Counted from the stretch's first letter, positions 29,218 through 57,271 are shown. The stretch: 64,000 nucleotides of DNA from Marispirochaeta sp. (GCA_963676835.2 CAXXFF010000002.1:1824001-1888000), one strand, 5' to 3'. Notes: generated by a model from the letters alone, not told the origin. Program-made: numbers and translations.

Positions 29218-29413
29218 CTTGAAAAAAGAAAAGCCCCAATCTTTCGATTGGAACAAAACCTGAAGCCGAAGGGCTGGGCCAGCGGTTTGCGAAGCAACAC
29301 CGCGAGCCCGAGCTTGTGCAGGGTTTTCCGAAGGAAAATCCCGAGAGTTGACGCAGAAGCCCGAAAAAGAAAAGGCCCCATTCCGAAGAATGGAGCCTTT
29401 TCTTTTTCGGGCT
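29218..29413. repeat. Structured tRNA-linked repeat, copy A
   Basis: Aligns with 57011-57204, 52603-52685 and 56917-57006. Confidence 0.9.
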
Positions 29414-29454
29414 GGGCGGATTTGAACCGCCGACCCCTTGTCCCCCAGACAAGT
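29407..29454 (-). repeat. Duplicated 3' 48 nt of tRNA-Pro (att site)
   Basis: Identical to 57198-57245; D-arm and 5' acceptor strand absent. Confidence 0.95.
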
Positions 29455-29664
29455 CCCCCTTATCCTACGGGTTCCTTTGTATTCCTACTATAACTATATA
29501 AAAGTATATTGAGTAGACAATTAAGTCAATGTTATTCCCAAGTGTTACCTCGGATTCCCGTTCCAAGGGAAAGATTTTTTGGTCACAAATTTGGCTACAA
29601 ATTTATTCTATGTGATATAGATATATTAGTAGCACTATAATTACTGGCTACCGTTGAAAAGTAA

Positions 29665-30471
29665 CTATGAATGATCCTGATACGAGTTGCTTGGTGAATA
29701 CCCCATAGCCACGGAAACCTTTTTTCCAGTTTCTCTAAGTTCGCTAAGTATTTCATTTTCCAAGGTGTTCCTAGCAATAATTGCGGTGGAGCATGAGACA
29801 CTGATAGCCGCAACGCACTGAGAATGATGATTGAGTACTGGAACTGAGATGCACTGCATCCCTAATGCATGCTCCTGCAAATCTAGTGAATATCCACGCT
29901 GCTTGACTAATTCAAGATCATCTAACAATTTAGTTTTATCGGTAATAGTAAAATTAGTTTTAGGCTTCATCTCAAGATCTTTAATAATTGTCTCAAGAGC
30001 TCCTCGCTCCAGATGAGCCAGCAGCACTTTTCCGGCGGCGGTAGAGTATAGATCTGTTCGCAGGCCAATGAAGGAAGAGCATTTCAAAGCTCCAGGCTGA
30101 TGGTTAACATCCACCTTATCCACATAAACGGCCTCTTTGTTATCGAGAACCAGTAGATGCACTGTCTCACTTAAGTTGCGGCTTAGCTCCTCAAGATAAA
30201 AATGTCCTCTTTCTCTTACGTTTACTCGCTGAAGATAGGATTGCCCGGCCCTTACAAGACTCAAACCTATATCGTACTTGCGTGTTTCATCATCTTTCTG
30301 CAGATAACCCATTTCGGTCAGGGTCTTTATGTGATGATGCAGGGATGATTTGTTGTAGCCTAGCGCTTCAGCAATCTCCTTGATGCTCAGGGGCCTGTTT
30401 TTGTTGAATATGGTTTCAATAACCCCGATAGCTTTGCCTACAGTGTTAAGTTTTTTTTCGGAAACTTCCAT
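29665..30471 (-). CDS. IclR family transcription regulator
   Basis: HTH LSIKEIAEALGYNKSSLHH; SETVHL, STAAGKVLLA, GYSLDLQE, AAISVS. Confidence 0.92.
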   Translation of the reverse strand: MEVSEKKLNTVGKAIGVIETIFNKNRPLSIKEIAEALGYNKSSLHHHIKTLTEMGYLQKDDETRKYDIGLSLVRAGQSYLQRVNVRERGHFYLEELSRNLSETVHLLVLDNKEAVYVDKVDVNHQPGALKCSSFIGLRTDLYSTAAGKVLLAHLERGALETIIKDLEMKPKTNFTITDKTKLLDDLELVKQRGYSLDLQEHALGMQCISVPVLNHHSQCVAAISVSCSTAIIARNTLENEILSELRETGKKVSVAMGYSPSNSYQDHS

Positions 30472-30538
30472 GAGAATTTCATAATACGAAATGTCGATTG
30501 TAGTCAAGAAAAAAGTGTTCATATTAAGAGTTGTCCTG

Positions 30539-30590
30539 TTGACAAATAAAAAACGCACCCTTAGTATATATATATGAAACGGAGTTTCAA
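30539..30590 (+). promoter_or_regulatory. Sigma70 promoter with KdgR/IclR-like operator
   Basis: TTGACA(30539)-N17-TAGTAT(30562); palindrome TGAAAC-GGA-GTTTCA at 30575-30589. Confidence 0.7.
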
Positions 30591-30613
30591 ATAGAGAAAC
30601 GATAGAGGGTGTT

Positions 30614-31087
30614 ATGGATCATAAAACACTGGCTGAAGAAGCGATTAGAGTCATCAGGCCTGCCATAACTGTTCTGTTAAACGAGAAAGCCAAACGCAGG
30701 GATATGCATGTTGTAGTTATGGATCCCACGAAGAAACCCTGGGAGACTGGTTTCGAGGAGGCGATCCTCTATGAATGCTCATTTAGCGATAAATCAAATT
30801 GGGAGAACCCTTACGATGAGCTGGCGCGGGCGAAAGCTAAACAAGCATGGAGGGATGGCAAAGGGAATATGCATAAGCACCTGAATGCTCCCGCAACCCT
30901 GTCCTCGGGTGATGTGACCTTTTACGGATCCTTTGAGTATGAAGGAGTTATTGTTGCCGCCAGCGGCATAGAGCCCTGGTTTGATGTGCTGGTAAGTGGT
31001 TGGATTGTATTAACGGTACAACAGCTGGCTCAGGATTGGTACCAACGGTTCAAATGCGAAAATCCCTCTGCCTTCTATATCCCCTGA
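30614..31087 (+). CDS. Hypothetical protein, distant GlcG/HbpS-like
   Basis: HVVVMD...ARAKAKQA...GVIVAASG....D pattern resembles the GlcG fold. Confidence 0.55.
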   Translation: MDHKTLAEEAIRVIRPAITVLLNEKAKRRDMHVVVMDPTKKPWETGFEEAILYECSFSDKSNWENPYDELARAKAKQAWRDGKGNMHKHLNAPATLSSGDVTFYGSFEYEGVIVAASGIEPWFDVLVSGWIVLTVQQLAQDWYQRFKCENPSAFYIP

Positions 31088-31135
31088 TATTTCCGGAATC
31101 CATATCAGTACGGGATAAAACAAATTACAAGGAAA

Positions 31136-32326
31136 ATGAATATGACGAATTTTGAATGGAGTATGCCGACCAAGTTGAACTATGCAGAAGGAAACCTCGA
31201 GAAGGTTGGCGAATTAACCAAGGGATTTGGCACGAAGGCCATGGTTGTTTCGTACGCACAGCCGGGAAAAGGCGTATGGGTTGTAGAGAAGGCGCTGGAG
31301 TCGCTGGATAAAGCAGGAATCTCCTATATTCTCTATGACCGCATTGAACCGAATCCGCGCGTAACAACCATTGATGCCGGAGTGGAAGTCTTTAAGCGTG
31401 AAGCATGTGATTATATTCTCGCCGTAGGCGGCGGTAGTGTTATCGATGCATCAAAGTATATCTCCGCAACAGCGTTTTGTGGTGGATCCTGCTGGGATTA
31501 TGTGATTCTTAAAGAGCGGAAAGAAAAAGTCTATACCGGGGCGTATCCGATTGTAGCGGTGCCTACCGTAGCCGCATCCGGATCGGAAGCCAACGCCGGA
31601 GGGGTGATTACTAATTGGGAGACAAACGAGAAGAGCTTCTGCCGCTCCGAACATAGAATACCCCGGATGGCGATTATCGATCCCAAGGTATTTGCTACCT
31701 TGCCAAAGAAAATTACTCTCGACAGTAGCATCGACATCTTCTCTCATCTGATTGAGCACTATCTTTCCAGCGATGCCGAGTCGGAGATCGCTGACCGGAT
31801 TACCGAAGGGTTGATACTGACAGTAATGGAATGTCTTGACCGGGTAATCGAGGATCCTGAGGATCTAGATGCCAGGGGAGAACTCTCGCTTGCGTCAATC
31901 CTTGGCTGGTCAGGGCTACAGGCCCTTGGTCGAACCGGTTCGATCCCTATCCACTTCATTGAACACCAGCTAAGCGGACACTTCGATGTAAGCCATGGCC
32001 GTGGAATTGCAGTCATTATTCCTCCGTATCTGGAGTATTTTGCTGATGCGAAACCGGCACGCTGGGCAAAACTTGCCCGCCGGGTTTTCGGCGTTGCTGA
32101 GAGGAATGATGTTGCAGCTGCGAAGATGCTTCACCAGAAAGTGCGTGACTGGTTTCAGTCGGTAGGGATGCTGCTGACGTTGACTGATGTAGGGATTACC
32201 GGAAAAAACGAGGTCATTGCTGACGATGTTATTAGGATGTATGGCACTCTGGAGGGAGACAAGGTTCCCGGGGCTCGACCTATGTCTCACAGCGACGTTT
32301 TAAATGTGCTGAATGCAGCTGTTTAG
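31136..32326 (+). CDS. Iron-containing alcohol dehydrogenase
   Basis: GGGSVIDASK, ASGSE, HFIEHQLSGHFDVSHGRG. Confidence 0.92.
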   Translation: MNMTNFEWSMPTKLNYAEGNLEKVGELTKGFGTKAMVVSYAQPGKGVWVVEKALESLDKAGISYILYDRIEPNPRVTTIDAGVEVFKREACDYILAVGGGSVIDASKYISATAFCGGSCWDYVILKERKEKVYTGAYPIVAVPTVAASGSEANAGGVITNWETNEKSFCRSEHRIPRMAIIDPKVFATLPKKITLDSSIDIFSHLIEHYLSSDAESEIADRITEGLILTVMECLDRVIEDPEDLDARGELSLASILGWSGLQALGRTGSIPIHFIEHQLSGHFDVSHGRGIAVIIPPYLEYFADAKPARWAKLARRVFGVAERNDVAAAKMLHQKVRDWFQSVGMLLTLTDVGITGKNEVIADDVIRMYGTLEGDKVPGARPMSHSDVLNVLNAAV

Positions 32327-32675
32327 GTAAAGAATCACTGGTTGCAGGAGTCAGCAGAGTTCGGCCTGTCAGTTCTTTCTGTAGTTGACGGGCCTTATCT
32401 GTTCGAGTCCGCTGATTGTACTAAACGTATACATGGAGTATACGTAAGCTGTGTATTTGTGTGTTTTATAAATTAATGCTGTTCTATGATTAGTCGCCTG
32501 TCATAAGTGGAAAAATTGCTAACCTACATGCGTGTTTACCAATAAGTACTTACTTAAAAGGGTTTTATGCAACAAACTGCACTGTTTCAAATCAGCTGGG
32601 TTACAAATTTCAAACCATTAGACAATAAGAGAATACAAGAAGTATACAAAAAGACTATTAATGAAACGATTTAGT

Positions 32676-32704
32676 TTGACATAAAAAAATACATGAAGTA
32701 TACT
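32676..32704 (+). promoter_or_regulatory. Sigma70 promoter of second tct operon
   Basis: TTGACA-N17-TATACT. Confidence 0.7.
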
Positions 32705-32904
32705 AATAAACGAAATTGATTCCATATCGAAGAAGTTCATAAAAATCAAGACATAGAAAAAGTTATTGAAGGCCCGTCAGGCATGCCTGCAGGCTGAATA
32801 GCAGATGCGCGTGCGTTTTGCTTGTGTGTCTATCGTTTGCGCTGGTTGTAGCAATCTGCATATGTAGATGAGCAACATATATATCCATCGGATAAGGAGT
32901 GTTT

Positions 32905-33888
32905 ATGAAAAGGATTCTAGTAGTTTTGTGTTTAGTGCTGATAGTAGCCGGACTGTCTTTCGCTGAAGGACAGGGCGAAAAGGAATATCCCACCAAGGAT
33001 ATTCAGTTTATCTCAGCCGGAAATGCTGGTGGCGGTGCTGATGCACTTTCTAGAAAGATTTGTGCCATTGCGCAAAAGGATCTGGGCGAAGATTTCTATA
33101 TTGTCAACAAGGGTGGATCTTCCGATGCAAACGGACCCAGTCTGTTGATGAAAGCAAAACCCGATGGCTATACAGTCGGGCAGCTTCTGTATGGTTCTGT
33201 TGTTTCAGCTGTGTGGAATGAAGTCCTGCCAGGGTATGATCTGGATCAACTTGAGATTTTCGGAATGGTCTCTGCGGAAGCAGACTCCTTTGTTGCTGGA
33301 AAGCACAGCGGTATCACCTCATTTGATGATCTGATCGCCAAGGCGAAGGCTGCGCCGAACACTATTACCGTAGCAGACCAGGGTGCTGGCTCACGGACTT
33401 ATATGATAGTCCGCCAGGTGGAAGAAATGTATGGTGTAAAATTTAACAATGTGTCATATCCAGGTTCTGGAAACATGCGGGAAGCTATTCTAAACAAGGA
33501 ACTGGCGGTTGGTGTTAATAGTCTCGGAGACTTTGCTCCTATTATAGATTCCGGAGACGCTATCGGTCTGGTAGAGTTCAGTCCGAAAAAGAATATGAAG
33601 TACCAGGATGTCCCCGTTTGTCCTGACCTTGGAATGCCTGAAAGTATGCAGAGTGGGTCTTTCTTTGCACTTGCAGTTCCAAAAGGCACACCTGAAGATA
33701 TTATCACGCTTCTGGCAGATACTTTTAAAATGGCAGTCGAGAGTAAGGAGTTTACCGATTTTACAACTTCGATTGGAGTTACGCCTGTCTCCATGAACAG
33801 AGCTGATTCTGTAGCCTACGTTAAGGGGGTTCAGGAAAGAGCCTTCAATGCTCTTCAGGAATTGAAAGACAAAGGGTTGATTGATTAA
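32905..33888 (+). CDS. tctC: TTT substrate-binding protein (TctC/Bug)
   Basis: YPTKDI..NAGGGAD, KPDGYT, PKGTP; signal peptide. Confidence 0.9.
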   Translation: MKRILVVLCLVLIVAGLSFAEGQGEKEYPTKDIQFISAGNAGGGADALSRKICAIAQKDLGEDFYIVNKGGSSDANGPSLLMKAKPDGYTVGQLLYGSVVSAVWNEVLPGYDLDQLEIFGMVSAEADSFVAGKHSGITSFDDLIAKAKAAPNTITVADQGAGSRTYMIVRQVEEMYGVKFNNVSYPGSGNMREAILNKELAVGVNSLGDFAPIIDSGDAIGLVEFSPKKNMKYQDVPVCPDLGMPESMQSGSFFALAVPKGTPEDIITLLADTFKMAVESKEFTDFTTSIGVTPVSMNRADSVAYVKGVQERAFNALQELKDKGLID

Positions 33889-33971
33889 AACCTGAGGATT
33901 CGAACTATATTCGAATTTGACGGACGGCAGAAAACACTTCTGCCGTCCATTTTTTAAGGAGTCGTTTTGTT

Positions 33972-34493
33972 ATGAATAGCAGAGCAACATATTTAAATGC
34001 GGAGGTTCTGACACCAGTCGGAATAATCGTTTTTCTGCTGGGCTATTTAGCAGAAGCTTTACGTATGGGGTGGATTGTAAAGGATGGTTTACCATCGGAA
34101 TCTTTTTTTCCTGTACTTTTATTTGTCCTGGGGTTTCCCGTCGCCGTGTATCTGTTGATACATGGGCTATTGAAAACAAAAGAGAAATTGGAGACTGCAG
34201 TACCAGTTGGTGCTGTCCCCGAGCGGGATGGAGGAAGTTCGTCAAAACTGGTCGTAGATGTAAAATACAAGCCTTTTTTTATCACAGTTTTAACTGTGGC
34301 CTTTATCGTATTGTTTAAATATTTAGGATATACCATTTCGGCTCCTATTTATATTTTTCTTTTTCAGCTGATATATGATGATGAGTTTGGAAACTACTTA
34401 AGAAAAATTATCGTGTCAGTAATTGTTAGTGTACTTGTATATGTTCTCTATGTTGGTTTCTTCAATATTCTCTTTCCGGAGGTTTGGAAATGA
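33972..34493 (+). CDS. tctB: TTT small permease
   Basis: 4-TM protein between tctC and tctA. Confidence 0.8.
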   Translation: MNSRATYLNAEVLTPVGIIVFLLGYLAEALRMGWIVKDGLPSESFFPVLLFVLGFPVAVYLLIHGLLKTKEKLETAVPVGAVPERDGGSSSKLVVDVKYKPFFITVLTVAFIVLFKYLGYTISAPIYIFLFQLIYDDEFGNYLRKIIVSVIVSVLVYVLYVGFFNILFPEVWK

Positions 34494-36022
34494 ATAGTCT
34501 TCTGCAAATTCTAGAAGGATTTTCATTTTTGACAGATCCTTATTCAATTCTGTTGTTGAGCCTCGGATTTTTTATAGGTATCATTTTTGGTTGTCTGCCA
34601 GGTTTGACTGCTACTCTGGCAATAGTCCTGCTGATGCCCATGACTTACTCCATGCCACTTTCGCAGGCTCTGGTTGTTTGTGCCGGCATATATATGGCAG
34701 GGACATATTCAGGTTCTATCTCAGCAATTACGCTTAATATACCAGGAGCACCAGCCGCAATGATGACCAGCCTGGAAGGACATCCTATGATGAACAGGGG
34801 GGAAGGCGCTAAAGCCATCGGGTCCGTTACAATAGGATCGGCCATTGGCGGAACTATTGGCAGTATTCTCCTGATCCTTGTGGCTCCTTTAACAATGGAA
34901 CTTGCTCTTCATATCCGCACCCCAGGAAAGACGGCGCTTATTTTCTTTGCCTTAATTGTTGTGTCTCTACTATCAGACAGTAAGGCTAAGGGGCTCATAT
35001 CTCTGGTATTTGGGTGCATGCTTTCCACAATTGGTATGGATGTACTAAGCAATAATTCCCGCTTTACTTTTCAGATCCCCAGTATGCTCCAGGGTATTGA
35101 GCTTACAACCATTATCATTGGCGCCTTCGCTCTTAGCGAATTGCTCTCTCAGTCAACAGTTAACAATAAAGAGTACAAAGAGCGTGTAGATAAAGCGAGT
35201 TCCAGGCGGTTTAAAAGAAAAGAGTTCTTTCCCAGTTTTAAAGAGATGAAAGAGATCGGCTTTTTGACCTACCTGAAAAGCGCATTGATCGGCTATGTAA
35301 TAGGGGTGCTGCCGGGAAGTGGGGCATCGATGGCTGCCTTCGTTTCTTACGCTGAAGCGAAACGAAGCTCCAAACATCCTGAAAAATATGGAAGAGGATA
35401 CCCTGAAGGAATGGTTGCAGCAGAAACCGCTAATAATGCGGTCTGTGGCGGAGCTTTGATTCCCATGCTCTCTTTGGGGATTCCCGGAGACGGTGTTACA
35501 GCTGTTGTGCTTGGGGTTTTAATGATCTATGGAATTGTCCCCGGCCCGACTTTGCTGGCAAATCAGATGGCTGATATTGCACCCATGTTTATTGCACTGC
35601 TTTTTTCAGCAATGATCCTACTGCCACTGTCGCTGTATCTCTTTGGCCCGTTCTATCTAAAGATTGCAAAAATCCCCCGGCTACCCTTATACAGTTCAAT
35701 TGGATTGATTGCGATCCTGGGAGTCTATTCGTCTACCTTGGATTTCTTTCAGATGTTCGTAGCTCTGGTAATCGGAATTCTGATTTATTTTCTGGGCAAA
35801 CAGCATTACCCCAAAGTGCCTTTTATTTTAGGTGTTATTCTGGGGCCGCTGTTTGAGTTGTACCTGCGCACAGCTATGTCAATAAGCAACGGCAACCCAC
35901 TGATTTTTATAACAAGTTTTGACAGTCTTATATTCCTGCTGTTGACAGTTTTCTTTGCTATCTTTTTGCCAAGAGTCAATAACATATCACATGAGCGAGC
36001 TGTGGCTGTTGAAGAGAAATGA
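34490..36022 (+). CDS. tctA: TTT large permease
   Basis: GCLPGLTAT, NIPGAPAA, ETANNA, LSLGIPGD. Confidence 0.93.
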   Translation: MNSLLQILEGFSFLTDPYSILLLSLGFFIGIIFGCLPGLTATLAIVLLMPMTYSMPLSQALVVCAGIYMAGTYSGSISAITLNIPGAPAAMMTSLEGHPMMNRGEGAKAIGSVTIGSAIGGTIGSILLILVAPLTMELALHIRTPGKTALIFFALIVVSLLSDSKAKGLISLVFGCMLSTIGMDVLSNNSRFTFQIPSMLQGIELTTIIIGAFALSELLSQSTVNNKEYKERVDKASSRRFKRKEFFPSFKEMKEIGFLTYLKSALIGYVIGVLPGSGASMAAFVSYAEAKRSSKHPEKYGRGYPEGMVAAETANNAVCGGALIPMLSLGIPGDGVTAVVLGVLMIYGIVPGPTLLANQMADIAPMFIALLFSAMILLPLSLYLFGPFYLKIAKIPRLPLYSSIGLIAILGVYSSTLDFFQMFVALVIGILIYFLGKQHYPKVPFILGVILGPLFELYLRTAMSISNGNPLIFITSFDSLIFLLLTVFFAIFLPRVNNISHERAVAVEEK

Positions 36023-36089
36023 TTCATCGGCAGATGATTCAGTGTGATCAGTAACTATATTTCCGTAAGTTTATAAGGAGGCACTTTTT

Positions 36090-36977
36090 GTGAATATAGA
36101 TTTTAAAGGCATTATTCCCCCGGTGGTTACACCGTTTACCTCTGACGGGAAGAAGATATCTGAAGAGAGATTTCGTGAGGTGATCCGCCATGTAGTCTCC
36201 AATGGCTGCTCGGGCGTATTTATCGGTGGCAGCCAGGGTGAGTTCTTCTCCCTCAGCTTCGAAGAAAGAGTTCGGTCGTATGAAATCGCGGTTGATGAGG
36301 CTGCCGGTAAGTTTTATGTGTTTGCCGGTACCGCTGCTGTAACGACGGAAGAAGCAGTCAATCTTACAAAAGCAGCGGAAAAGGCGGGTGTTGACGCTGC
36401 TTCCGTAATAAATCCTTATTTTATTACCCCTGATGCACAGGAGCTGTACGATCACTATAAAACTATTGCTGATTCTACCGCGCTTCCAGTATATCTGTAC
36501 AATAACCCGGGGCGAACCGGGAGTGTAATTCCGGTTTCAGTTATCTCCAGGTTATCTGGGATTGAGAATATTGTTGGTATGAAAGATTCCAGCGGCGATC
36601 TTACCTATGTGAATAATATACTCAGTAGTACGGAAAACTTCGATCTATTCTGTGGACGTGATACCTGCATCTACAATGAACTTACTTCCGGTGCCGTTGG
36701 GGCTGTTGCGGCTACCGCTAATGTTGCTCCTGCGCTGGTATCGAGTATTTATAATGCAGTACAAGTCGGTGACCTGGCGCAGGCCAGGAAGGCGCAATCA
36801 GAACTTGCCCCTTTGAGGAACGCATTCGACCTTGGAAGTTTTCCAGTTGTTGTGAAAGAAGCGTTACAGCTGATCGGCCTGGAGGTGGGGCCTGCGCGCC
36901 TACCTGTGCGTCCCCTGACGATCGAAAACAGGGCTAAATTAAAAGATATTCTTATTTCCATGAATTTGATCAACTAG
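36090..36977 (+). CDS. DHDPS/NAL-family class I aldolase or dehydratase
   Basis: VTPF, GSQGEF, YNNPGRTG, GMKDSSGD. Confidence 0.9.
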   Translation: MNIDFKGIIPPVVTPFTSDGKKISEERFREVIRHVVSNGCSGVFIGGSQGEFFSLSFEERVRSYEIAVDEAAGKFYVFAGTAAVTTEEAVNLTKAAEKAGVDAASVINPYFITPDAQELYDHYKTIADSTALPVYLYNNPGRTGSVIPVSVISRLSGIENIVGMKDSSGDLTYVNNILSSTENFDLFCGRDTCIYNELTSGAVGAVAATANVAPALVSSIYNAVQVGDLAQARKAQSELAPLRNAFDLGSFPVVVKEALQLIGLEVGPARLPVRPLTIENRAKLKDILISMNLIN

Positions 36978-37100
36978 AGCAGTAAGCCCGGCTATTGTAC
37001 TCGGCCGGGCATTATTATTGATCTAATAATGAGTTACAGCCAGAGAAGACAGATGGCCTAGCTTGACGCATACAAAATTTTATCATAGCGTGACAAAGGT

Positions 37101-37757
37101 ATGTACTCGGAAAAACACAACAAGGAAAGTGTCTACAAGGACATTCACAAGCAGATTCGAACCGGTAAGCTGGCCCCAGGCGACCATATTCTGGAAAAAG
37201 AGCTTTGTTCAAAGTACGGATTGAGTCGGACTCCAATGCGGGAAGTCCTCTGGAACCTGGAAAAGGAAGGTCTCCTGATACCAGCGCCTAAAAACGGATA
37301 TCTTGTACGCGAACTTAACCTGCAGGAAATAATGGAGATTTTCCAGGCTAGGGAGGCGGTGGAAGGAATGGCTGCCTATCTGGTTTCGCATCTGCGCAAT
37401 GAAGATTTCTTTAACAGGTTGAAGGAATTCAGGGAAGCTCTGGAATCTTTAAGTGATGATGAAATGCAGGCTGAAGGTCCAAAACTTGGTGCCCAGTTGC
37501 ATACATTCATCATAGAAAATGCTAACAACGGTATCTTGTTCGGATACTATAAAATGCTGCACACCCTATACTCTCTAACTGTCAACATTTCAAGTCAGTC
37601 CAGGGAAATCGAGAGTAAGTCGAGGGAATCTCACCTCGCTATAATAAAAGCGATAGAGGACAGAAACGGAGAGCTCGCGGAAAAGCTGATGCGCGAACAT
37701 CTTCGAGAGACCTGTCGAAATATTGCGAAGGTTTTTTATCCTAATTTGATAGAGTAA
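37101..37757 (+). CDS. GntR/FCD transcription regulator
   Basis: LSRTPMRE HTH; FCD domain. Confidence 0.92.
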   Translation: MYSEKHNKESVYKDIHKQIRTGKLAPGDHILEKELCSKYGLSRTPMREVLWNLEKEGLLIPAPKNGYLVRELNLQEIMEIFQAREAVEGMAAYLVSHLRNEDFFNRLKEFREALESLSDDEMQAEGPKLGAQLHTFIIENANNGILFGYYKMLHTLYSLTVNISSQSREIESKSRESHLAIIKAIEDRNGELAEKLMREHLRETCRNIAKVFYPNLIE

Positions 37758-37799
37758 AGCTTGATGGCTCTGGTGTATATAAACTGTGCTATGCTCAGC

Positions 37800-38816: not shown

Positions 38817-38856
38817 ATTGTCTTTCCTGCTATTCTGGAATATAAAAAACTTTTGC

Positions 38857-38969: not shown

Positions 38970-38986
38970 TCGAAGGGGATAGGAAA

Positions 38987-48338: not shown

Positions 48339-48452
48339 AAAAGTGCTCGCCTGATTGTTTAGGATGTTCTAAATGAGGTGTTCCCTCAACATTTATGAAG
48401 GATGTGCCATATATATTAATTTATCATATTTGGATAATATCTTGCTAGGGAA

Positions 48453-49106
48453 ATGTGGACGTTGAAGCAGATTAAAGTACTACCGGTAAGAGAGCGCGTA
48501 GCCTCGGAATTGCGTAATGCGATATTTTCCGGCAAATTTACACCTGGCGAGGAACTGCGGCAGGATGCGTTGGCAAAAATGCTGGGGGTTTCACGTATGC
48601 CGATTCGTGAAGCGCTTCAGATTTTGTCCGGCGAAGGTCTTATTAAATTAAGGGCAAACCGTGGTGCTGTTGTACAGGAAGTTTCTGACCAATACATTCG
48701 TGAGCACTTCGAGCTTCGAATGATACTGGAATGCGAAGCTGTCGCACGAGCGTGTACATACATTGACGATATTTCGGAATTAGCACACATACACGAATCC
48801 CAGAAAAAAGCCATTGAAGTGATGGATATGCATGAGACGAATCTTTGCAATCAAGCGTTTCATATGGCAATCTGGGATGGTGCTCGCAACTCAAAGATCA
48901 AAGCTGTTTTGGAGCAACTCTGGAACGGCCTATTTATCGGGAGAGTAATACAGCCGGCAATACATGCTGGCAAGTCCTTTGAAGAGCATGGTTTGATTAC
49001 CGCAGCTATCGAAGAAAAACAGCCGGAGTTAGCCAGGAGCTTAATGAAGCAGCATATTGAACGCAGCATGGAAAATATGCTCATGCATACATCCGATAAT
49101 TCATGA
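48453..49106 (+). CDS. GntR/FCD transcription regulator
   Basis: GVSRMPIREAL; NQAFH; EEH. Confidence 0.92.
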   Translation: MWTLKQIKVLPVRERVASELRNAIFSGKFTPGEELRQDALAKMLGVSRMPIREALQILSGEGLIKLRANRGAVVQEVSDQYIREHFELRMILECEAVARACTYIDDISELAHIHESQKKAIEVMDMHETNLCNQAFHMAIWDGARNSKIKAVLEQLWNGLFIGRVIQPAIHAGKSFEEHGLITAAIEEKQPELARSLMKQHIERSMENMLMHTSDNS

Positions 49107-49127: not shown

Positions 49128-49983
49128 TTATTTGAATACAGTCCTATCCAAATAATGAGCCCATATGGTTTCAAACCACGATTCTTCCTGTGGAATTTCT
49201 CGCGTCGGTATCCATTGGCACTTTATGGTTCCTGACTGTGGATTCCATCGAATGTGCTGTACTTTTTGCCGCAATGCAGTGTTCTCTGGAATAATTCGCC
49301 AATCAGAAAGTAGGGGATGGATTTGTCTGCCTTCTTCGTTATTGTTGCTGGCAACGAGCGATGAGGCACGGCTGCCTCCACCCTTGTGTAAATAATCTGA
49401 AATTGCTTCTAAGTACATTCTGTGGCCAAAGACCATATGGCGCAGTTTTAGTGCATTGGGCAATCGCCATGGATCCACTTTCAAGCCGGAAAAACGCTTC
49501 TGCTGATCCACGGCTTCCGATATTGCCATATTGATTTCAGTTGAATTACGAATTGCTGCAGCTTGTTTGCTCATGCGGACCTGAAACTCCCGTTTGTATT
49601 CTCTGTCGCAATCAGGGATGGGCGGTTTTCCGGTGAGTGTATCGATAATGGATAAAATCTCTGATAGTGTATCTTTGCCGCTGCTTTGTGCTGAATCCAA
49701 GTCCAATGTTTTCTTCTGGTAACCGAATGCGATTTTTTGAGCAGCCCGGAAAGCTCCTACCTGGCCGGAATTAAGCGCTGTTCCGCCCGGACGGGCTGCG
49801 CCATGGCTCCCATTGACTTCTCCAACTGGGAATAGGTGGTGGATATTAACCGATTCCCACCAAATATCTGCAGCAAGCCCTCCATTGTTATGCTGTGCTG
49901 AAACGGCGATCTGCAGCGGCTCTGTATAGAGATCAATATTGTGATCCTTGTATAACTGTATTGCAGCAGGATTCAGCTGCTTA
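49128..49983 (-). pseudogene. 3' remnant of FAD-dependent oxidoreductase (SdhA/FrdA-like flavoprotein family) truncated by IS21
   Basis: QHNNGGL..LFPVGEVNGSHG..RPGG.ALNSGQVG; 5' part replaced by the IS end. Confidence 0.8.
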
Positions 49984-50181
49984 TGTGTACACCGGCCGAA
50001 AACGGACACCCATTCCGGAGGAAAGCGGACAGTGATTCCGGGCAAAAACGGACACCTGTTCCGGCCGAAAACGGACAGTTTTTCCGGAGCGCCGGAATTG
50101 CTTTAACCTGAAATAAGAAATCCTCGATTAACACGAGCACTCTCGTCACAATAGCAAAACTACTATTTGACGGAGTACAGA

Positions 50182-51729
50182 ATGTCGAGAGCGAGGATTC
50201 ATGTGAAACACATGCGTAAACTGCTTGCGCTCACGTACGAGAGCAAGCTGGGACTTCGGGATGTATCCCAACTGACCGGAGTATCTAAAACCACAGTCAG
50301 CGAATATCTGGTGCGATTCCGCCGCACCGGGATCAGCTATGCAGCAAGCCAAAAGCTTACCGATGAGCAGCTGCTTGGCCTGTTCGAAGAGAAAAAGCAG
50401 GAAGAAAGTGAGCAGTATACACAACTAACGACACTGTTCCCCGAGTACGCCAAACGGCTGAAACAGCGGGGGATGACGAAGCAGTTCCTATGGAAGGAAT
50501 ACCGTAGAAAGTATCCAAACGGATATAGATACAGTCAGTTCTGTCACCACTTTACGGTGTTTCTGGACTGCGGTGAGGTGACGATGCGTCAGCCCCACGA
50601 GCCTGGAGATATGGCATATCTCGACTATGCCGGAGAAACGTTCCCTTACTATCCTGATGGAGATGAGCAGCGGGCACAAATATTCGTTGCGGTACTCGGA
50701 GCAAGTCAGCTGGCCTATGTTGAAGCAAGTGAGAGCCAGAAACAAGAGGCCTTTGTCCGCTCCACAGAACGGGCTCTGAGGTACTTCGGCGGGGTTCCGC
50801 GAGCTCTCGTCCCGGATAACCTGAAGGCGGCCGTGCTCAGTGCGAGTAAATATGAGCCGGAGCTTAATCCGTTGTTCGATGATTTTGCCGATTACTACCG
50901 GACGACGATAATCCCCGCCAGGGCCTATAAACCGAAAGACAAATCCCTGGCGGAGAATGCCGTCAAGTTAACCTATCAGCGGATATTCGCCCCGCTGTAC
51001 GGCAAGAGGTTCCATTCGTTGGCTGAGCTCAACCAGGCCATCGCAGAACTTCTTGAAGAACACAATACCCGGAAACTGACAAAGCTGCAAATCTCACGGC
51101 GTCAGTTGTTTGAAGAGATCGAACGGTCTGCGCTGAAGACGCTGCCGGGCGAACCGTATCCAATGAAATACTTCGAAACTCACAAGGTTGCACCGGACTA
51201 TCACTTTATCCTGTCAAAAGATAAGCACTACTACTCTGTTCCCTGGCAGCTGAAGGGAGAACAGGTCAAAGTGATCTTTGATGAGCGAATTATAGCGGTA
51301 TATCACAAGAATGTACGCGTAGCCCAGCACCGCCGGAGCAGAAAGAAAGGACAATACTCCACACAGTCCGCACACATGCCCAGGCACCATCAGTTTGTTG
51401 AATCATGGTCGGCGGAGAAGTTTACCACCTGGGCTCAGTCGATTGGAGAAGAGACGTTCCTGGTGATTTCACATCTATTAAACAGCAAGCCACATGAGCA
51501 GCAGGCGTACAAATCCTGCCTTGGTGTGCTGAACCTGGCAAAGGATGCCGGATCACACCGGCTGAACTGGGCCTGCCGACGTGCGTTGAACTACTCGAGA
51601 ATCAGTTATCGGGATGTTCGTGCATATCTGGATGAAATCATGCGACAAGAAAAGGATGAACAGCAGAACAAACAGGTGTTTCTCTTCGCCGATCACAAGA
51701 ACCTGCGGGATTCTGCAATCTACAAATGA
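50182..51729 (+). CDS. istA: IS21 transposase
   Basis: LDYAG, VPDNLKAAV, PKDKSLAE, HYYSVP. Confidence 0.95.
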   Translation: MSRARIHVKHMRKLLALTYESKLGLRDVSQLTGVSKTTVSEYLVRFRRTGISYAASQKLTDEQLLGLFEEKKQEESEQYTQLTTLFPEYAKRLKQRGMTKQFLWKEYRRKYPNGYRYSQFCHHFTVFLDCGEVTMRQPHEPGDMAYLDYAGETFPYYPDGDEQRAQIFVAVLGASQLAYVEASESQKQEAFVRSTERALRYFGGVPRALVPDNLKAAVLSASKYEPELNPLFDDFADYYRTTIIPARAYKPKDKSLAENAVKLTYQRIFAPLYGKRFHSLAELNQAIAELLEEHNTRKLTKLQISRRQLFEEIERSALKTLPGEPYPMKYFETHKVAPDYHFILSKDKHYYSVPWQLKGEQVKVIFDERIIAVYHKNVRVAQHRRSRKKGQYSTQSAHMPRHHQFVESWSAEKFTTWAQSIGEETFLVISHLLNSKPHEQQAYKSCLGVLNLAKDAGSHRLNWACRRALNYSRISYRDVRAYLDEIMRQEKDEQQNKQVFLFADHKNLRDSAIYK

Positions 51730-51737
51730 GGTAACCG

Positions 51738-52478
51738 ATGAATAATAATCAGGCGACAATCAACAAGATGACCGAGATGCGTCTCCACGGAATGGTACAG
51801 GCCTTCCGTACACTGCAGGAGACCGGACGCCATATGGATCTTACAACCGATGAGGTTATCAGCTACCTTGTCGACTCAGAATGGGATGAGAAACACAATC
51901 GCCGACTGGCGCGCCTTGCCAATGCGGCCCGTTTCCGCTATAAGGCAGCGATTGAAGATATCGACTATACCTTCGACCGGAATCTGGACAAAAACCAGAT
52001 CTTAAGACTTGCAGCCTGCTCCTGGATATCCCGGGGGCAGGACCTGCTCATCACGGGTCCGACCGGAGGAGGAAAAAGTTTTCTTGGATCGGCTTTCGGA
52101 CATCAGGCATGTCAGTATGGGTATACCGTCGCTTACTTTTCCACAACGCGTTTATTCAATGAAATAGCGGCGGCAAGGGATGATGGAACCTACCTGAAGC
52201 ACTTGTCACGCATAATGAAAAACAAGCTGGTCATTATCGATGACTTCGGTCTGGAACCGCTGGAGCATACTGCACGGATGGCATTTCTTGAAATCCTTGA
52301 AGATCGACACCGGAGAAAATCTACGATAGTGATCGCCCAACAGCCGGTAGAAAACTGGCACAGCATTATCGGTGACCCCACGATTGCCGATGCCATAATG
52401 GACCGTCTTGCCTTTCATTCTCATAGAATTGTAATAACCGGGGACTCGGTAAGGAGGAAACTCTATGCTGTAGATTGA
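51738..52478 (+). CDS. istB: IS21 helper ATPase
   Basis: GPTGGGKS, IIDDFG, ADAIMDRL, GDSVR. Confidence 0.95.
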   Translation: MNNNQATINKMTEMRLHGMVQAFRTLQETGRHMDLTTDEVISYLVDSEWDEKHNRRLARLANAARFRYKAAIEDIDYTFDRNLDKNQILRLAACSWISRGQDLLITGPTGGGKSFLGSAFGHQACQYGYTVAYFSTTRLFNEIAAARDDGTYLKHLSRIMKNKLVIIDDFGLEPLEHTARMAFLEILEDRHRRKSTIVIAQQPVENWHSIIGDPTIADAIMDRLAFHSHRIVITGDSVRRKLYAVD

Positions 52479-52602
52479 CGCAAAACGGACACCTGATCAT
52501 ACTGAAGACGAGGATTTACTTCCTTCAGGCAGCTGTCCGTTTTCCGCCGGAATCACTGTCCGAAATCATCGGAATACACATAACTGTAAACTAATGTCCT
52601 GA

Positions 52603-52685
52603 CTTGAAAAAAGCCCCAATCTTTTGAATGGAACAAAAACTGAAGCCGAAGGGCTGGGCCAGCGGTTTGCAAAGCAACACCGCGA
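52603..52685. repeat. Structured repeat, partial copy B
   Basis: Matches 29218-29305. Confidence 0.85.
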
Positions 52686-53004
52686 ACCAAGTCAGCGGCA
52701 GGATGGCGCGAAGCTGAGCAGTCCATGGATGGACAAAAGCGAAGCCGGGCGGCAAACCTTAAGGCAATAATTATATTCATCCCTTTTCCATTGCTTTCCA
52801 CGACCGCACTACATAGACCGATCGACTGCTCCGCTGATGCAGATGATTGAAATTCCAATAACATAACATTATTTGACTGGATACGGTTTATCAGGTTTTA
52901 AAAATGTTCCAAAAATCTACATGTAATCCGGCAGATTCTAAAAAAATTGGAAGAGAGAATGCAATTCTTCTCGGGGTAGGTGTAGCTTGACCATAAATTG
53001 TAGA

Positions 53005-53023
53005 TTGTATACATTGTGTCGAC
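53005..53023 (+). promoter_or_regulatory. Candidate GntR/FCD operator
   Basis: Adjacent palindromes TGTATACA and TGTCGACA upstream of the enolase-family gene. Confidence 0.5.
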
Positions 53024-53075
53024 ATGTAGTAGTGATAGAATTGGTAAATGAAGAATCGTGCAGAAGGAGATAATC

Positions 53076-54245
53076 ATGAAAATTACGGAAATAGAAACTT
53101 TTATATTACGGGTACCTTTAAAAGGAAAAACCTTTCTTTCCTCCCAGTGTTCCTTCCCGGAACGTAACAGCCTTCTGGTTAAAATAACTACAGATAACGG
53201 CCATATCGGCTGGGGAGAGGGTGGCCAGTACGGACCACCGGAACCGGTTAAGGCTTGCATCGATCATGTTCTTGGCCCCCGATTGCTGGGTCAGGATCCC
53301 ATGAACCGGGTTGTGCTCTCCGAGCAGATGTATGCGGCAACTCGCGATTTTGGTCAGCGGGGGCCTTATATTGAAGGTATCAGTGCGCTGGATATTGCCA
53401 TGTGGGACATTGCCGGCAGATATCTGAATCAGCCTGTAAGCGTCCTTCTCGGCGGTGCCTACCGGGAAAGTATTTCCGCTTATGCTACAGGAGGCTACTA
53501 TCCGATTGCGGATTTTGAAGATGGAAAAGTCGACTACGAATCACTACGGTCCGAGGCTGAGGGGTATCTGAGAAAGGGCTTTACCATGATTAAAATGAAG
53601 ATAGGACTCCTGTCTCTGGAGGAAGATTATAACCGGGTTAAGACGATTCGGGATGTTGTCGGCCAGGATTTTAAAATCATGATCGACTGTAACCATGCCT
53701 ATAACGCAGCATCAGCCGCAAAAATGATCCGTCTCCTGGAGTCGCTGAAGATCGAGTTTCTGGAAGAACCTGTGCCTCCTGAGGACCTTACAGGATATTC
53801 ACGGCTCCGTGAGTGGTCTCCAATTCGTATTGCCGGGGGGGAATGTTTTTATACCGGCTACGATTTTCGTACAACTCTGGAGAAAGGGGCAGTAGATATT
53901 CTGCAGCCTGATATCTGTGTAACCGGTGGGTTTACAGAATTCTTGAAAATTCGTTCTCTCGCGTTTGTGTATAACACCATGCTAATACCCCATGTCTGGG
54001 GATCTGGAATTGCCTTTGCCGCTGCACTCCAGGCGATAAGCACAATTCCGGCGTTTCCATACACCGCTAATAATGTTCCCCTGCAGAATGTTCCCATGGT
54101 AGAATTTGATCAAAGCCCCAATCCTCTACGGGATGAACTTCTGGTGGAAAAGTTTGTATTGGAGGAGGGGAAGGTGGCGGTTCCCTGTAGAGCGGGGCTT
54201 GGAGTTACCATTGATCCGGATGTACTTGAGAAATATGCAGTGTGA
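53076..54245 (+). CDS. Mandelate racemase/muconate lactonizing enzyme family (acid-sugar dehydratase-like)
   Basis: DIAMWDI, KMKIG, DCN, EEP, GE, QPD, PH. Confidence 0.9.
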   Translation: MKITEIETFILRVPLKGKTFLSSQCSFPERNSLLVKITTDNGHIGWGEGGQYGPPEPVKACIDHVLGPRLLGQDPMNRVVLSEQMYAATRDFGQRGPYIEGISALDIAMWDIAGRYLNQPVSVLLGGAYRESISAYATGGYYPIADFEDGKVDYESLRSEAEGYLRKGFTMIKMKIGLLSLEEDYNRVKTIRDVVGQDFKIMIDCNHAYNAASAAKMIRLLESLKIEFLEEPVPPEDLTGYSRLREWSPIRIAGGECFYTGYDFRTTLEKGAVDILQPDICVTGGFTEFLKIRSLAFVYNTMLIPHVWGSGIAFAAALQAISTIPAFPYTANNVPLQNVPMVEFDQSPNPLRDELLVEKFVLEEGKVAVPCRAGLGVTIDPDVLEKYAV

Positions 54246-54266
54246 ACGGTTATGGTTAAGCCTGGT

Positions 54267-54920
54267 CTATGACTGGTACCGGATTAATGCATCCCGGGTG
54301 TTACGGATATGCAGACGCATGGCACTCTCGGCTGCTTCCGGTCCGGTCCGCAGCCCCTGTAATATTTGAAGGTGTTCGACGTAGGATTCTTCAATCCGCT
54401 TCGGAATCAAGGCCGCATCCCTGTGCTCCTTGTCGAGAAGAGTCCGGTAGTTATTCAGAATTTCCTTTATACGCCTGTTCTGGGAGATTTCTATAATCAG
54501 GCGGTGAAGTTTTTCTCCGGCTTCTTCGGCAGCACTCTGGAAAATGGAAATTTCTGATTCAATGCGTGCGGCAGTGAACTGTACTTCAAGTTCTGCAAGC
54601 AGTTCTGGCGATAATCTTCCGGCAGACAAAGAGGCTGCCATGCCTTCAATGGCTTCACGGATCTGAAACAGCTCAATGATATCGTGTAGGCTTATCCGAC
54701 GGATGAATGCACCTTTGCGGGGAATTATCTCGACGATTCCCTCCTTCTCAAGCTGGAGAAATGCTTCCCGCACCGGAGTTCGGCTAATTTGCAGCCGGGT
54801 GGAGATTTCAACCTCGTTGAGTGGATCCCCCTGGTTCAGTTCGTTTGCCAGGTAGAGTGAGGAGAGATGGTCGTAGACCTGCTGTTTCAGGGATTGTGGC
54901 TTTCTGTTTTCAGGCAGCAT
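54267..54920 (-). CDS. GntR/FCD transcription regulator
   Basis: ISRTPVREA. Confidence 0.92.
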   Translation of the reverse strand: MLPENRKPQSLKQQVYDHLSSLYLANELNQGDPLNEVEISTRLQISRTPVREAFLQLEKEGIVEIIPRKGAFIRRISLHDIIELFQIREAIEGMAASLSAGRLSPELLAELEVQFTAARIESEISIFQSAAEEAGEKLHRLIIEISQNRRIKEILNNYRTLLDKEHRDAALIPKRIEESYVEHLQILQGLRTGPEAAESAMRLHIRNTRDALIRYQS

Positions 54921-54974
54921 TTTTTCGTGTATATTCCTCTCAATCTGACATTAAAAATGCCTGATAGAAACTAT

Positions 54975-55580
54975 TTATACCACATTTGCGCGCAGAGATC
55001 GAATCGCGGCCTCAATATCACCGACTTCCACTGCTTTTAGAATATTTTGATGCTCAGTTACCCTGTGATTTAGATCACGCAAACTTGAATAGCTGGGAAT
55101 AGTCCTGTTTCGTACCATTTCCCACAGATTAAGCACATGATCTTCCGGGTGAAGAACAATAAAGAACCGGTGAAAGCTGATATCAGTTTCAATATACTCA
55201 TCCAGATTATCATTATTGGCAGCCGATTCCATCCCGGATAATATTTCTTTCCAGGCAGGAAGATAGTTTTCCTTCAGATTCTGCCATACCTTGCGAAGCA
55301 CAAACTCCTCAATTTCAAGACGAATATGAATAATAAGATCCACAACCTCCTGTTCTGGTGATCCTGCTACCTTTGTTCCTACATTGGGGGTCATTTCCAC
55401 TATGCCCTCCCGCATAAGCAGCTGCAGGGCCGCACGGATTGTCCCCCTGCTTACTTCAAAGCGGTCTGAAAGCTGCTGCTCTTTTAGCAGAGTGTTCCGC
55501 GGGAGGCTCCCGGAGAGTATCTCTATGCGTATTCTATACGCTATCTGTTCAGAGATGGTTCTGTAAATACCTCGTGCCAT
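54975..55580 (-). CDS. GntR/FCD transcription regulator
   Basis: VSRGTIRAAL, DISFH, TEH. Confidence 0.9.
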   Translation of the reverse strand: MARGIYRTISEQIAYRIRIEILSGSLPRNTLLKEQQLSDRFEVSRGTIRAALQLLMREGIVEMTPNVGTKVAGSPEQEVVDLIIHIRLEIEEFVLRKVWQNLKENYLPAWKEILSGMESAANNDNLDEYIETDISFHRFFIVLHPEDHVLNLWEMVRNRTIPSYSSLRDLNHRVTEHQNILKAVEVGDIEAAIRSLRANVV

Positions 55581-55642
55581 ATAATTCCTTCCTGATGGAT
55601 TAAATTACCCTGTTAAAGCGAGGTTGTCTATCTTAATGCTAA

Positions 55643-55667
55643 TTGACAATTGTTGACAATTGACAAT
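55643..55667. promoter_or_regulatory. Triple TTGACAA repeat, candidate GntR operator/promoter
   Basis: TTGACAATTGTTGACAATTGACAA in the divergent intergenic region. Confidence 0.55.
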
Positions 55668-55717
55668 AGGGGCATGCTGTAATAGTATTTCCTGAGAACA
55701 AACTAAGGAGATAAACT

Positions 55718-56863
55718 ATGAAAATTGTAAGTGTTGAGGCATTCCCTGTGGAATTTCCCCTGAAGGTTCCTTCCCGGGATGCCACCGGAATATGGAACAG
55801 CTGGAATACGGTTATTATTAAAATCACCGCAGCTGATGGAACCTGCGGCTACGGAGAAGCTGGCCCTATACACGGCGGTGGAATCCCCATTTTCACAGCC
55901 ATTGTTGAGCACAGACTGGCTGGGCTTCTCTTGGGGGAAAACCCTTTTGACCGAGAGCGGATCTATGAAAAACTTCTCGGCAGAGGATCAGGTGCCTATG
56001 CTCTCGGTCAAAAAGGAGCTATTGTCACCGCAATAGCTGGAGTAGATATTGCTTTGTGGGACCTCACTGGAAAGATCCTGAAAACACCGGTCTACAACCT
56101 TCTCGGAGGCTGTGTTTATGAAAAAATTCCCGCATATGCCTCTGGTTTCTTTGGCAAAGACGGGAGGGCGCTTACTGCGGAAGAGTGCGCAGAAGAAGCC
56201 AGGTGTTATGTTGATCAGGGGTTCAAAGGTGTTAAGATGAAGGTCGGTTTCGGGCGGGATCGCGACCTTAAGAACCTGGCAGCAGTTCGTAAAGCTCTGG
56301 GACCGGATCTGGGCATTATGGTGGATGCCAACCAGAGCTATTCTTATCATGATGTTCTGAAAACAGCCAATGAGCTTGCAGCATTTGATCTTACTTTTCT
56401 TGAAGAACCTCTTCCCATTAACGATCTGGATGGTATGGCATCCCTGGTGCAGAATACTGCAACCCCCATCGCTGCAGGCGAGAATTATTATACCCGGTAC
56501 GAGTTTCGGGAAGTGATAGCACGACGAGCAGTAAATATTATTCAGCCGGATATTATTCATGCCGGAGGTATCGCAGAAACAAAAAAGGTCGCATCCATGG
56601 CACTGGCCCATAATATACCCCTGGCGCCTCACATTCATGCGACAGTCGGTGTCCCTGCAAGCATCCATCTACTTGCCTCATGTTCAAATACTCTCGCCGC
56701 GGAATATATTACCTCCGGCGGTTCCTATGACCTGCGGCTTGCCATGTTCGGAGATTGCTGCCTTGTGGATAAAGACGGATATGTTCCCGTACCTCAGGAG
56801 CCGGGGCTTGGCATACGGATGAACGAGGAGATCTTTGAAAGATTTAGGCCGAAGAAAAAATAG
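55718..56863 (+). CDS. Mandelate racemase/muconate lactonizing enzyme family
   Basis: DIALWDL, KMKVG, DANQ, EEP, GEN, QPD, PH. Confidence 0.9.
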   Translation: MKIVSVEAFPVEFPLKVPSRDATGIWNSWNTVIIKITAADGTCGYGEAGPIHGGGIPIFTAIVEHRLAGLLLGENPFDRERIYEKLLGRGSGAYALGQKGAIVTAIAGVDIALWDLTGKILKTPVYNLLGGCVYEKIPAYASGFFGKDGRALTAEECAEEARCYVDQGFKGVKMKVGFGRDRDLKNLAAVRKALGPDLGIMVDANQSYSYHDVLKTANELAAFDLTFLEEPLPINDLDGMASLVQNTATPIAAGENYYTRYEFREVIARRAVNIIQPDIIHAGGIAETKKVASMALAHNIPLAPHIHATVGVPASIHLLASCSNTLAAEYITSGGSYDLRLAMFGDCCLVDKDGYVPVPQEPGLGIRMNEEIFERFRPKKK

Positions 56864-56916
56864 CTGGTAATCAATATTGCTGATAAAAAGGTTCAACTCT
56901 TAGCACTGGAATGATC

Positions 56917-57204
56917 GGCCAGCGGTTTGCGAAGCAACACCGCGAGCCCGAGATTGTGGCAGGGTTTTCTGAAGGAAAATCCCGAGAACAAGCGAAGGAA
57001 GCCCGACTACAAAAAAAGCCCCATTCTTTCGAATGGAACAAAAACTGAAGCCGAAGGGCTGGGCCAGCGGTTTGCCGAAGGCAACACCGCGAGCCGAGTC
57101 AACGGCAGGGTTTTCCCGGAGGGAAAATCCCGAGAGTTGACGAAGAAGCCCGAAAAAGAAAAGGGTTCCGCTCTTTCGAACGGAACCCTTTTCTTTTTCG
57201 GGCT
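56917..57204. repeat. Structured repeat, tandem copies C (partial) and D
   Basis: GGCCAGCGGTTTGC..GCAACACCGCGAGCC occurs at 56917 and 57062. Confidence 0.9.
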
Positions 57205-57271
57205 GGGCGGATTTGAACCGCCGACCCCTTGTCCCCCAGACAAGTACGCTAAACCACTGCGCTACAGCCCG
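57198..57271 (-). tRNA. tRNA-Pro(GGG), CCA not encoded
   Basis: CGGGCTGTAGCGCAGTGGTTTAGCGTACTTGTCTGGGGGACAAGGGGTCGGCGGTTCAAATCCGCCCAGCCCGA folds as a cloverleaf; TTGACA box upstream at 57312-57307. Confidence 0.97.

Follow-up and report, generated by a model that had tools for sequence, protein, structure and literature searches.

An integrase-less interval at tRNA-Pro(GGG) of Marispirochaeta sp., probably a stranded island remnant, bordered by a genus-wide tRNA-linked hairpin repeat

The window analysed here, the whole stretch of 64,000 nucleotides from Marispirochaeta sp. (GCA_963676835.2 CAXXFF010000002.1:1824001-1888000; G000:C2:1824001-1888000 in our numbering), belongs to a genome of 4.43 Mb in four contigs that is 97% complete. 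Within it, an interval of 27.8 kb carrying sugar-acid genes lies between an intact tRNA-Pro(GGG) gene (the proximal or near end) and a displaced copy of the 3' half of that gene (the distal end), and behind both tRNA sequences stands a structured repeat, here called the trailer. The genome (G000) was compared with five congeners (G001-G005), of which G002 is the closest relative (flank proteins 79-96% identical; cNMP kinase 96%). The ends of the interval are marked by the following features, together with a third copy of the trailer and the adjoining gene on the distal flank.

57197..57272, minus strand: intact tRNA-Pro(GGG) gene, the integration target (ARAGORN; Rfam RF00005 at 57198-57271, 64 bits)
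57187..57245, minus strand: proximal copy of a 59-bp perfect direct repeat (48 nt of tRNA, from anticodon stem to 3' end, plus 11 nt)
56906..57197, minus strand: proximal repeat array P, two units of ~145 nt, unit 1 with the 9-nt tRNA-end copy and unit 2 cut short; no arm-like site behind it
52607..52748, minus strand: detached partial repeat copy M (repeat comparison; covariance model, 35 bits)
29578..29601, minus strand: tandem 12-bp arm-like sites, ~125-150 bp inside the distal core (pattern and alignment; putative function)
29506..29532, minus strand: promoter-like TTGAC...TATA stretch (alignment to the attR ends of two other tRNA-Pro loci; putative function)
29407..29454, minus strand: displaced tRNA 3' half, an attR-type core, 48/48 identical to the tRNA
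29220..29406, minus strand: distal repeat D, made up of one unit and an additional hairpin, with P1-like and P2-like parts combined
26848..29070, minus strand: monomeric isocitrate dehydrogenase gene (icd), outside the repeats (Pfam)

An earlier reading of the window (the original prediction) had described a 48-bp direct repeat of the tRNA 3' part, with similarity continuing for ~190 bp beyond the tRNA end. Both observations hold. The tRNA part of the duplication is 29407-29454 = 57198-57245, perfect identity covers 59 bp (29396-29454 = 57187-57245), and the match between the copies extends over 236 columns at 88% identity (E 1.8e-74), reaching ~190 bp past the tRNA end. The assembly was checked against unitigs of run X1, which is possibly the source sample itself, and against run X2. 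Both trailer alleles and their junctions are present in the X1 unitigs, whose long pieces show no differences, and pieces of the island and its flanks are present in X2; an artefact of assembly is not evident for the duplication. The IS21-family element, the third trailer copy M and the second trailer unit behind the full tRNA, all lying between the repeats, are additions to the earlier description.

Putative integrase arm sites were found at one end of the interval. At the distal end, the order of arm-like pair, promoter-like stretch and core also aligns in the attR of G002 and in metagenome locus L059, and a near-identical arm-like pair stands between tRNA-Pro and a 399-aa integrase in L026. 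A promoter consensus scan called a neighbouring site rather than 29506-29532. The loose arm pattern, which was drawn up after the sites had been seen, occurs in 4 of 106 metagenome flanks and 75 of 17,715 genome windows, and the whole interval holds only three matches to it, at 29599, 31044 and 46672. Behind the full tRNA, the pattern search found no arm-like site within 600 bp. The G001 tRNA-Pro array is followed by a single arm-like 9-mer.

No integrase was found that could account for these ends. PF00589 has no match in the window and eight elsewhere in the genome, PF00239 has none genome-wide, and tblastn of ten recombinases against the interval gave a best E of 0.26; a proposed search for Phage_integrase remnants thus yielded none by hidden Markov model (HMM) or tblastn. 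No relaxase or phage family appeared when the 29 interval open reading frames (ORFs) were scanned against Pfam, and no six-frame relaxase search was made. The predicted absence of tyrosine and serine integrases, relaxases and phage genes is therefore borne out, for relaxases by Pfam only. A recombinase-sized ORF of 297 aa adjoining the distal repeat proved to be an IclR regulator (Pfam). Elsewhere in the genome, the best candidates for a cognate enzyme share 27% identity with the G002 integrase and 29% with that of L026, with none at E<=1e-40, and no helper element stands in tandem in G000. The att pattern had 0 matches in viral contigs, and the exact att-plus-trailer pattern had 0 in metagenome contigs; a looser att pattern matched at least 123 metagenome stretches, and one of the 121 loci analysed carried the repeat. 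A second integrase-less island lies at tRNA-Thr(CGT) in the same genome (C1:449339-462139), with att copies of 42 bp (100%) at 460747 and 44 bp (91%) at 462096 and a repeated right-end region; its cargo is restriction-modification-like by eye, and it has no PF00589 or tblastn integrase match.

The same tRNA gene in G002 bears a different, 9.7-kb island (L001:7803-17582) that is satellite-like and intact-looking. Its genes encode a 373-aa PF00589 tyrosine integrase, located 110 bp from the end of the tRNA, together with a terminase large subunit, a resolvase and an ion-channel gene, and it has the arm-like pattern at both ends. Because this intact integrase island sits there, tRNA-Pro(GGG) can be taken as an integrase target. 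The trailer of G002 stands only behind attR, followed by glutaredoxin-like and Ldh_2 genes as in the window, with no icd. In the other four congeners the trailer lies directly behind tRNA-Pro(GGG), and no att duplicate was found. The arm-like and promoter-like stretches common to the G002 island and the interval bear out the proposal that the distal tRNA copy is an attachment scar. From these comparisons of sequence, we infer that the distal end is a real attR-type end, and that the interval has neither a working attL nor a cognate helper.

The trailer itself is a repeat of ~145-nt units, each comprising a terminator-like hairpin and a covarying two-hairpin body and ending in a 9-nt copy of the tRNA end. 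Across 13 units from five genomes, 15 of the 26 predicted pairs show double changes; 94% of cells are paired, compared with 34-45% for slid controls, and none of 500 shuffles matches the covariation score; these controls flatter the structure, which was derived from this same alignment of related sequences. Matches to the covariance model occur in 8 of 61 genomes, namely G000, all five congeners and two others, and those in the congeners lie behind Pro, Arg, Leu and Met tRNAs. G000 has eight matches, four in the interval and four in reverse orientation behind tRNA-Arg, -Leu and -Met. Thus, the trailer is a host repeat that is genus-wide and covarying, resembles the tRNA-linked repeats (TLRs) of Escherichia coli, and is native behind tRNA-Pro(GGG) in four of the five congeners. 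Unit D1 is a mosaic, P1-like at 20 of 21 positions in one part and P2-like at 64 of 67 in the next; the 12% end-to-end difference between the two copies comes partly from such shuffling of units and therefore does not date the ends. Long shared trailers of this kind inflate the att lengths called by island finders.

Rfam recognised only the tRNA in the window; six other matches fell far below their gathering scores, and the trailer has no match there. A literature search, with subscription papers and supplements outside its reach, returned no account of such repeats from spirochaetes and none that links them to islands. The integron attC cassette was tried as a model for the array and rejected: judged by what we take to be the R''/R' box consensus, the unit alignment contains no conserved attC-like boxes, the outer-stem columns vary in sequence, and the modules hold several genes. 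Detached units also occur 5.4 kb (G001, L002:3900-9450) and 2.6 kb (G003, L005:3815-6400) behind the tRNA-Pro array, bracketing a HerA-like gene and a methylase in G001 and a sigma factor and a short-chain dehydrogenase (SDR) in G003. Outside the genus, metagenome loci L061, L087 and L125 have tRNA-Pro(GGG) followed by short hairpin inserts that end in a tRNA-end copy and are unrelated by model to the trailer family.

Between the two ends, the interval contains the following.

52750..56900, no strand assigned: module 1, two enolase-superfamily (MR/MLE) genes and two GntR/FCD regulators (Pfam)
49984..52580, plus strand: IS21-family element (istA 50167-51729, istB 51738-52478)
49128..49982, minus strand: 3' half of a gene for an FAD-dependent oxidoreductase, truncated where it meets the IS21 (284 codons left of about 670-684)
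47306..48338, plus strand: tartrate dehydrogenase-like gene split over two frames, a sign of decay (same letters in an X1 unitig)
29665..49106, no strand assigned: module 2, sugar-acid gene block (Pfam, NCBIfam, composition)

A check of composition had been proposed, and its outcome is divided. Module 2 (the distal 19.4 kb) is atypical, at the 94th percentile of 214 windows in tetranucleotides and above all 300 background sets in codon use, those sets being random and non-contiguous; module 1 (the proximal 4.2 kb) is host-like, at the 30th percentile in tetranucleotides and the 34th in codon usage. None of the five congeners has an orthologous block of module 2, so the whole interval is not carried syntenically in these relatives, and no donor island for it was found. 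Module 2 encodes IclR, an iron-dependent alcohol dehydrogenase (Fe-ADH), TctCBA, a DHDPS-family aldolase, GntR, LacI, the D-mannonate dehydratase ManD (38987-40204, above the NCBIfam cut-off) and an aldo-keto reductase, followed by a sugar ABC transporter, Gfo/Idh/MocA, SDR, a cupin, the tartrate dehydrogenase-like gene and a further GntR. The predicted role of the cargo is uptake and breakdown of sugar acids.

Between IclR and Fe-ADH lies a 157-aa orphan (30614-31087, plus strand) without a Pfam or NCBIfam family; it occurs in 1 of 401 phylum genomes, G000 itself, and has 39 relatives at 38-72% identity, listed without context. Two Fe-ADH paralogues, at 10922-12154 and 31136-32326 (33% protein identity), are the source of the short DNA repeats D7 and D11. 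In module 1, 55718-56863 (plus strand) is a second enolase-superfamily copy; it shares 83% identity with a core copy at C2:10146, which is itself 95% identical between G000 and G002.

The IS21 element is one of nine copies that are 99.7-100% alike, with IstA and IstB above curated cut-offs and terminal repeats present. A 4-bp target duplication flanks six of the nine; it is absent from the interval copy and from two copies near contig starts (C1:51-2649 and C3:727-3322); one of these has on its left the 6 bp that the other has on its right, possibly through rearrangement or misjoin. Haplotypes are uninformative on whether the other copies derive from the one in the interval. The FAD gene is cut at the end of the element, and its 5' half is nowhere else in the assembly; at least 1.1 kb has therefore likely been deleted. 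Among 301 class genomes, its best matches are three congeners at 66-67%. In two of the congeners (G001 and G003) an orthologue of like orientation follows the same tRNA at a distance of 32.5 and 42.5 kb, adjoining orthologues of the left-flank genes of the window. It has diverged in proportion to the flanking kinase (66% versus 82-85% within the other clade, against 77% versus 89-95% for the kinase). This gene order and divergence indicate that the repeats have come to enclose host-type DNA that originated behind tRNA-Pro. A foreign-looking module 2 and a host-like module 1 make the interval a mosaic rather than one element; of the predicted single island, the integrase-type distal end stands and the unity of the block does not.

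Similar arrangements were found at other tRNA genes of the genus. We examined 12 repeat-bearing loci, six at tRNA-Pro(GGG), one at Met, four at Leu and one at Arg, a sample that is small, related and non-blind. At three loci in the congeners the full tRNA is followed by the repeat and, at some distance, by an att fragment; the DNA in between has no PF00589 match. At tRNA-Met of G003, 17.5 kb separates the two, an arm-like pair stands 129 bp inside a decayed core, and the repeat lies behind that core. At tRNA-Leu of G004, where the distance is 1.2 kb, a 54-nt core has the repeat on both sides; at tRNA-Leu of G005, a 48-nt core at 83% has it at the near end only. The G004 locus retains both arm pairs, and a 10-nt duplication of tRNA-end context brackets its repeat ~80 bp before the left pair; this repeat looks as if it was inserted after integration. 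A linked att fragment is present at five of the 12 loci, four with a near-end repeat and no integrase and one (G002) the reverse, and the other seven have no att fragment in the DNA searched. Two sequences were left uncounted: a lone tRNA-Leu(CAG) att-type fragment followed by a repeat unit (L210:10338-10500, G003 C5), which is on a different contig from the tRNA, and a partial integrase 1 kb behind tRNA-Leu of G003, which resembles the integron/Xer-like class and not the tRNA-island class.

Based on these findings, we propose that the interval is probably a stranded, decaying remnant of a tyrosine-integrase island at tRNA-Pro(GGG) that now has neither its integrase nor its near end. First, a tyrosine integrase would have inserted an island at the anticodon-loop core of the tRNA gene, an integration that would have made the 48-bp duplication. 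The repeat at the full tRNA may then have come by any of three routes. A circle holding the right half of a donor island, its attR, the trailer and downstream host DNA may have been opened at the core, a capture resembling specialised transduction that would yield exactly the observed order; the repeat may have been copied from the distal side; or it may have been inserted at the tRNA end after integration. The three are inseparable here, and we lean towards capture for the tRNA-Pro interval since the FAD gene that is cut here has its place behind the same tRNA in congeners. The earlier suggestion that attP carried a related trailer thereby becomes one route among three; it may be right under capture, and the G004 tRNA-Leu repeat, with its post-integration look, is the part of the evidence that does not follow it. 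At least 1.1 kb, and perhaps more, would later have been lost in a deletion linked to the IS21. Having only one arm, the block would be no substrate for an integrase and could be lost only through homologous recombination between the 59-bp repeats. Slow decay would follow, for example in the split tartrate dehydrogenase-like gene. Of the two fates that the original prediction had allowed, a domesticated island that lost its integrase fits this account.

Several observations weigh against it. G004 keeps both arm pairs at tRNA-Leu, so a near-end repeat by itself does not imply a lost arm; moreover, arm function is read here from a pattern, and a divergent left arm could be missed. The FAD gene has a GC3 of 0.45, like its module-2 neighbours. 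A target duplication is also missing from two other IS21 copies, those near contig starts, and the pairing of the flanks of the element is not confirmable by short-read unitigs. Unitig depth in X1 is 11.6 in module 2 and 14.4-15 in module 1 and P, compared with 9.1-9.2 in both flanks and 7.5 in D; contig depth is no copy number, and library bias or amplification between the repeats could explain the excess, but a fully static block would not be expected to show it. Finally, the empty tRNA-Pro site that a comparison of the icd to cNMP-kinase interval was predicted to reveal did not appear: no empty icd-tRNA site was found in the genomes compared, which include no conspecific strain, and the interval has no counterpart at the same site in any of the five congeners. 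Monomeric icd is an unstable flank marker, since just one of the five congeners has it (7 of 41 genomes overall). Gain in G000 versus loss in G002 is unpolarised for want of a clean empty-site strain.

The parallel loci suggest a further idea, which we put forward tentatively and regard as unlikely. The tRNA-linked hairpin repeats of this genus may be active modules that re-insert at tRNA 3' ends after integration, wedging themselves between the core and the left arm. If so, wedged repeats would block excision and fix islands in place, the integrase would be lost afterwards, and TLR-type repeats would have a host-side role in grounding islands.

The remnant account competes with other readings of the same evidence. 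The hairpin repeats might themselves be recombination sites, or tiny site-specific elements, that insert at tRNA 3' ends and set the points at which gene modules join, so that the block grew module by module. The strong covariation (15 of 26 pairs with double changes) would suit such a role, as would units that follow different tRNAs in varying order and in either orientation and that end in tRNA-end copies; G000, G001 and G003 have units set apart from the array, 2.6-5.4 kb behind it, and the 10-nt duplication brackets the repeat at G004 tRNA-Leu. However, the junctions of the detached units share no common breakpoint or direct repeat, the alignment has no conserved attC-like boxes, no dedicated recombinase was identified, and an ordinary integrase explains the 48-bp core and the arm-like pair. 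We consider growth of this kind rather improbable.

The original prediction had offered, as its second fate, a non-autonomous element mobilised in trans. On this reading, the interval would be cargo excisable as a unit by an integrase acting in trans, with the repeat a normal part of attP. The core is still 48/48 identical, the right arm-like end is intact, and unitig depth is slightly higher inside; the repeat also follows the full tRNA at three further loci that lack an integrase, one of which, G004 tRNA-Leu, has retained both of its arm pairs. Such an element would nonetheless need what the interval appears to have lost: no left arm-like site was found, and no integrase in the genome exceeds 27-29% identity to the G002 and L026 enzymes. 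The 29 ORFs include no relaxase by Pfam, genes inside are truncated and split, and viral contigs gave no att match. Mobilisation in trans is distinctly improbable on this evidence, and that half of the prediction is not supported.

A vertical history is doubtful to a similar degree. Here, the interval would be an old possession of the G000/G002 lineage, lost in G002 by recombination between repeats before that genome gained an island of its own. The order of tRNA, repeat, variable DNA and FAD gene is that of G001 and G003, the divergence of the FAD gene tracks the species pattern, and the unit body of G002 is nearer to P1 (66/70) than to D1 (58/69). Yet the att core has kept 100% identity, unlike two of the three parallel cores, which are decayed, and module 2 is compositionally foreign and has no orthologous block in the five congeners. 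Vertical descent would in any case change the date of the distal end and not its mechanism. Least likely of all, and very improbable, is a misjoin at the duplication or the IS21 junction: although the interval IS21 has no target duplication and X1 unitigs are unable to span it, both trailer alleles form separate unitigs, six other IS copies have correctly paired flanks, the 97% complete assembly holds no partner flank or FAD 5' half elsewhere, and run X2 contains island and flank pieces.

Specialised-transducing products of the lambda-dgal kind join one end of an element to the host DNA adjoining its att site and lose the integrase side; the interval may resemble them, a likeness drawn from gene order, with no circle or donor seen. 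Its insertion sequence is like other members of the IS21 family (NCBIfam NF033546, NF038214) in its istA-istB pair, its TG...CA ends with internal repeats and its several near-identical copies, and it differs in lacking a target duplication and in abutting half a gene. That tRNA-targeted integrase islands leave partial tRNA copies is well documented (PMC9897764, in the part available), as is the loss of integration genes from domesticated proviruses (PMC13626063, likewise in part). With intact tRNA islands, as far as the available text of PMC9897764 describes them, the interval shares a tRNA 3' half from the anticodon arm, a distal arm-like pair, a promoter-like stretch and foreign cargo. It differs in having no integrase or left arm-like pair and in the host repeat and host-like DNA at its near end, and judged by sequence it would not pass as an intact tRNA island, with no integrase inside and no proximal arm-like sites. 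The cis-mobilisable elements (CIMEs) outlined in the accessible portion of PMC5704250 are similar in that integration and transfer genes are absent (relaxase by Pfam on the 29 ORFs only), both cores are kept and the cargo is metabolic; they keep attL and attR, whereas left arm-like sites were not found in the interval and there is no tandem helper. An integrative and mobilisable element (IME), as defined in the same portion of that source, was rejected, as the interval encodes no excision or integration of its own. The integrase-less ssrA islands of Dehalococcoides, in the part of PMC3146451 available, likewise have no integration or transfer genes, keep their cores and carry metabolic cargo.

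For the trailer, the closest described kind is the E. coli TLR, a likeness that we would draw from layout and not from sequence kinship. CGTC repeats have been reported in Spirochaetes, and the accessible part of that report describes no tRNA-linked copies (PMC3733652). In E. coli, according to the available text of PMC8144298, one to five TLR units follow tRNA genes and have no known function. As in that account, the units here stand in tandem right behind the tRNA, contain a copy of its end and form terminator-like hairpins. The end copy is 9 nt long at tRNA-Pro and ~17 nt at tRNA-Leu(CAG), compared with the 18-19 bp given there, and unlike the TLRs in that text, the shared hairpin module has the opposite orientation where it follows Arg, Leu and Met tRNAs, and units also follow att fragments. 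An integrase-less tRNA island is ordinary in itself; what is new is a structured, genus-wide repeat at the near end of several such islands. If the link holds in larger samples, it would give TLR-type repeats a testable role and suggest how catabolic and defence cargo comes to be fixed.

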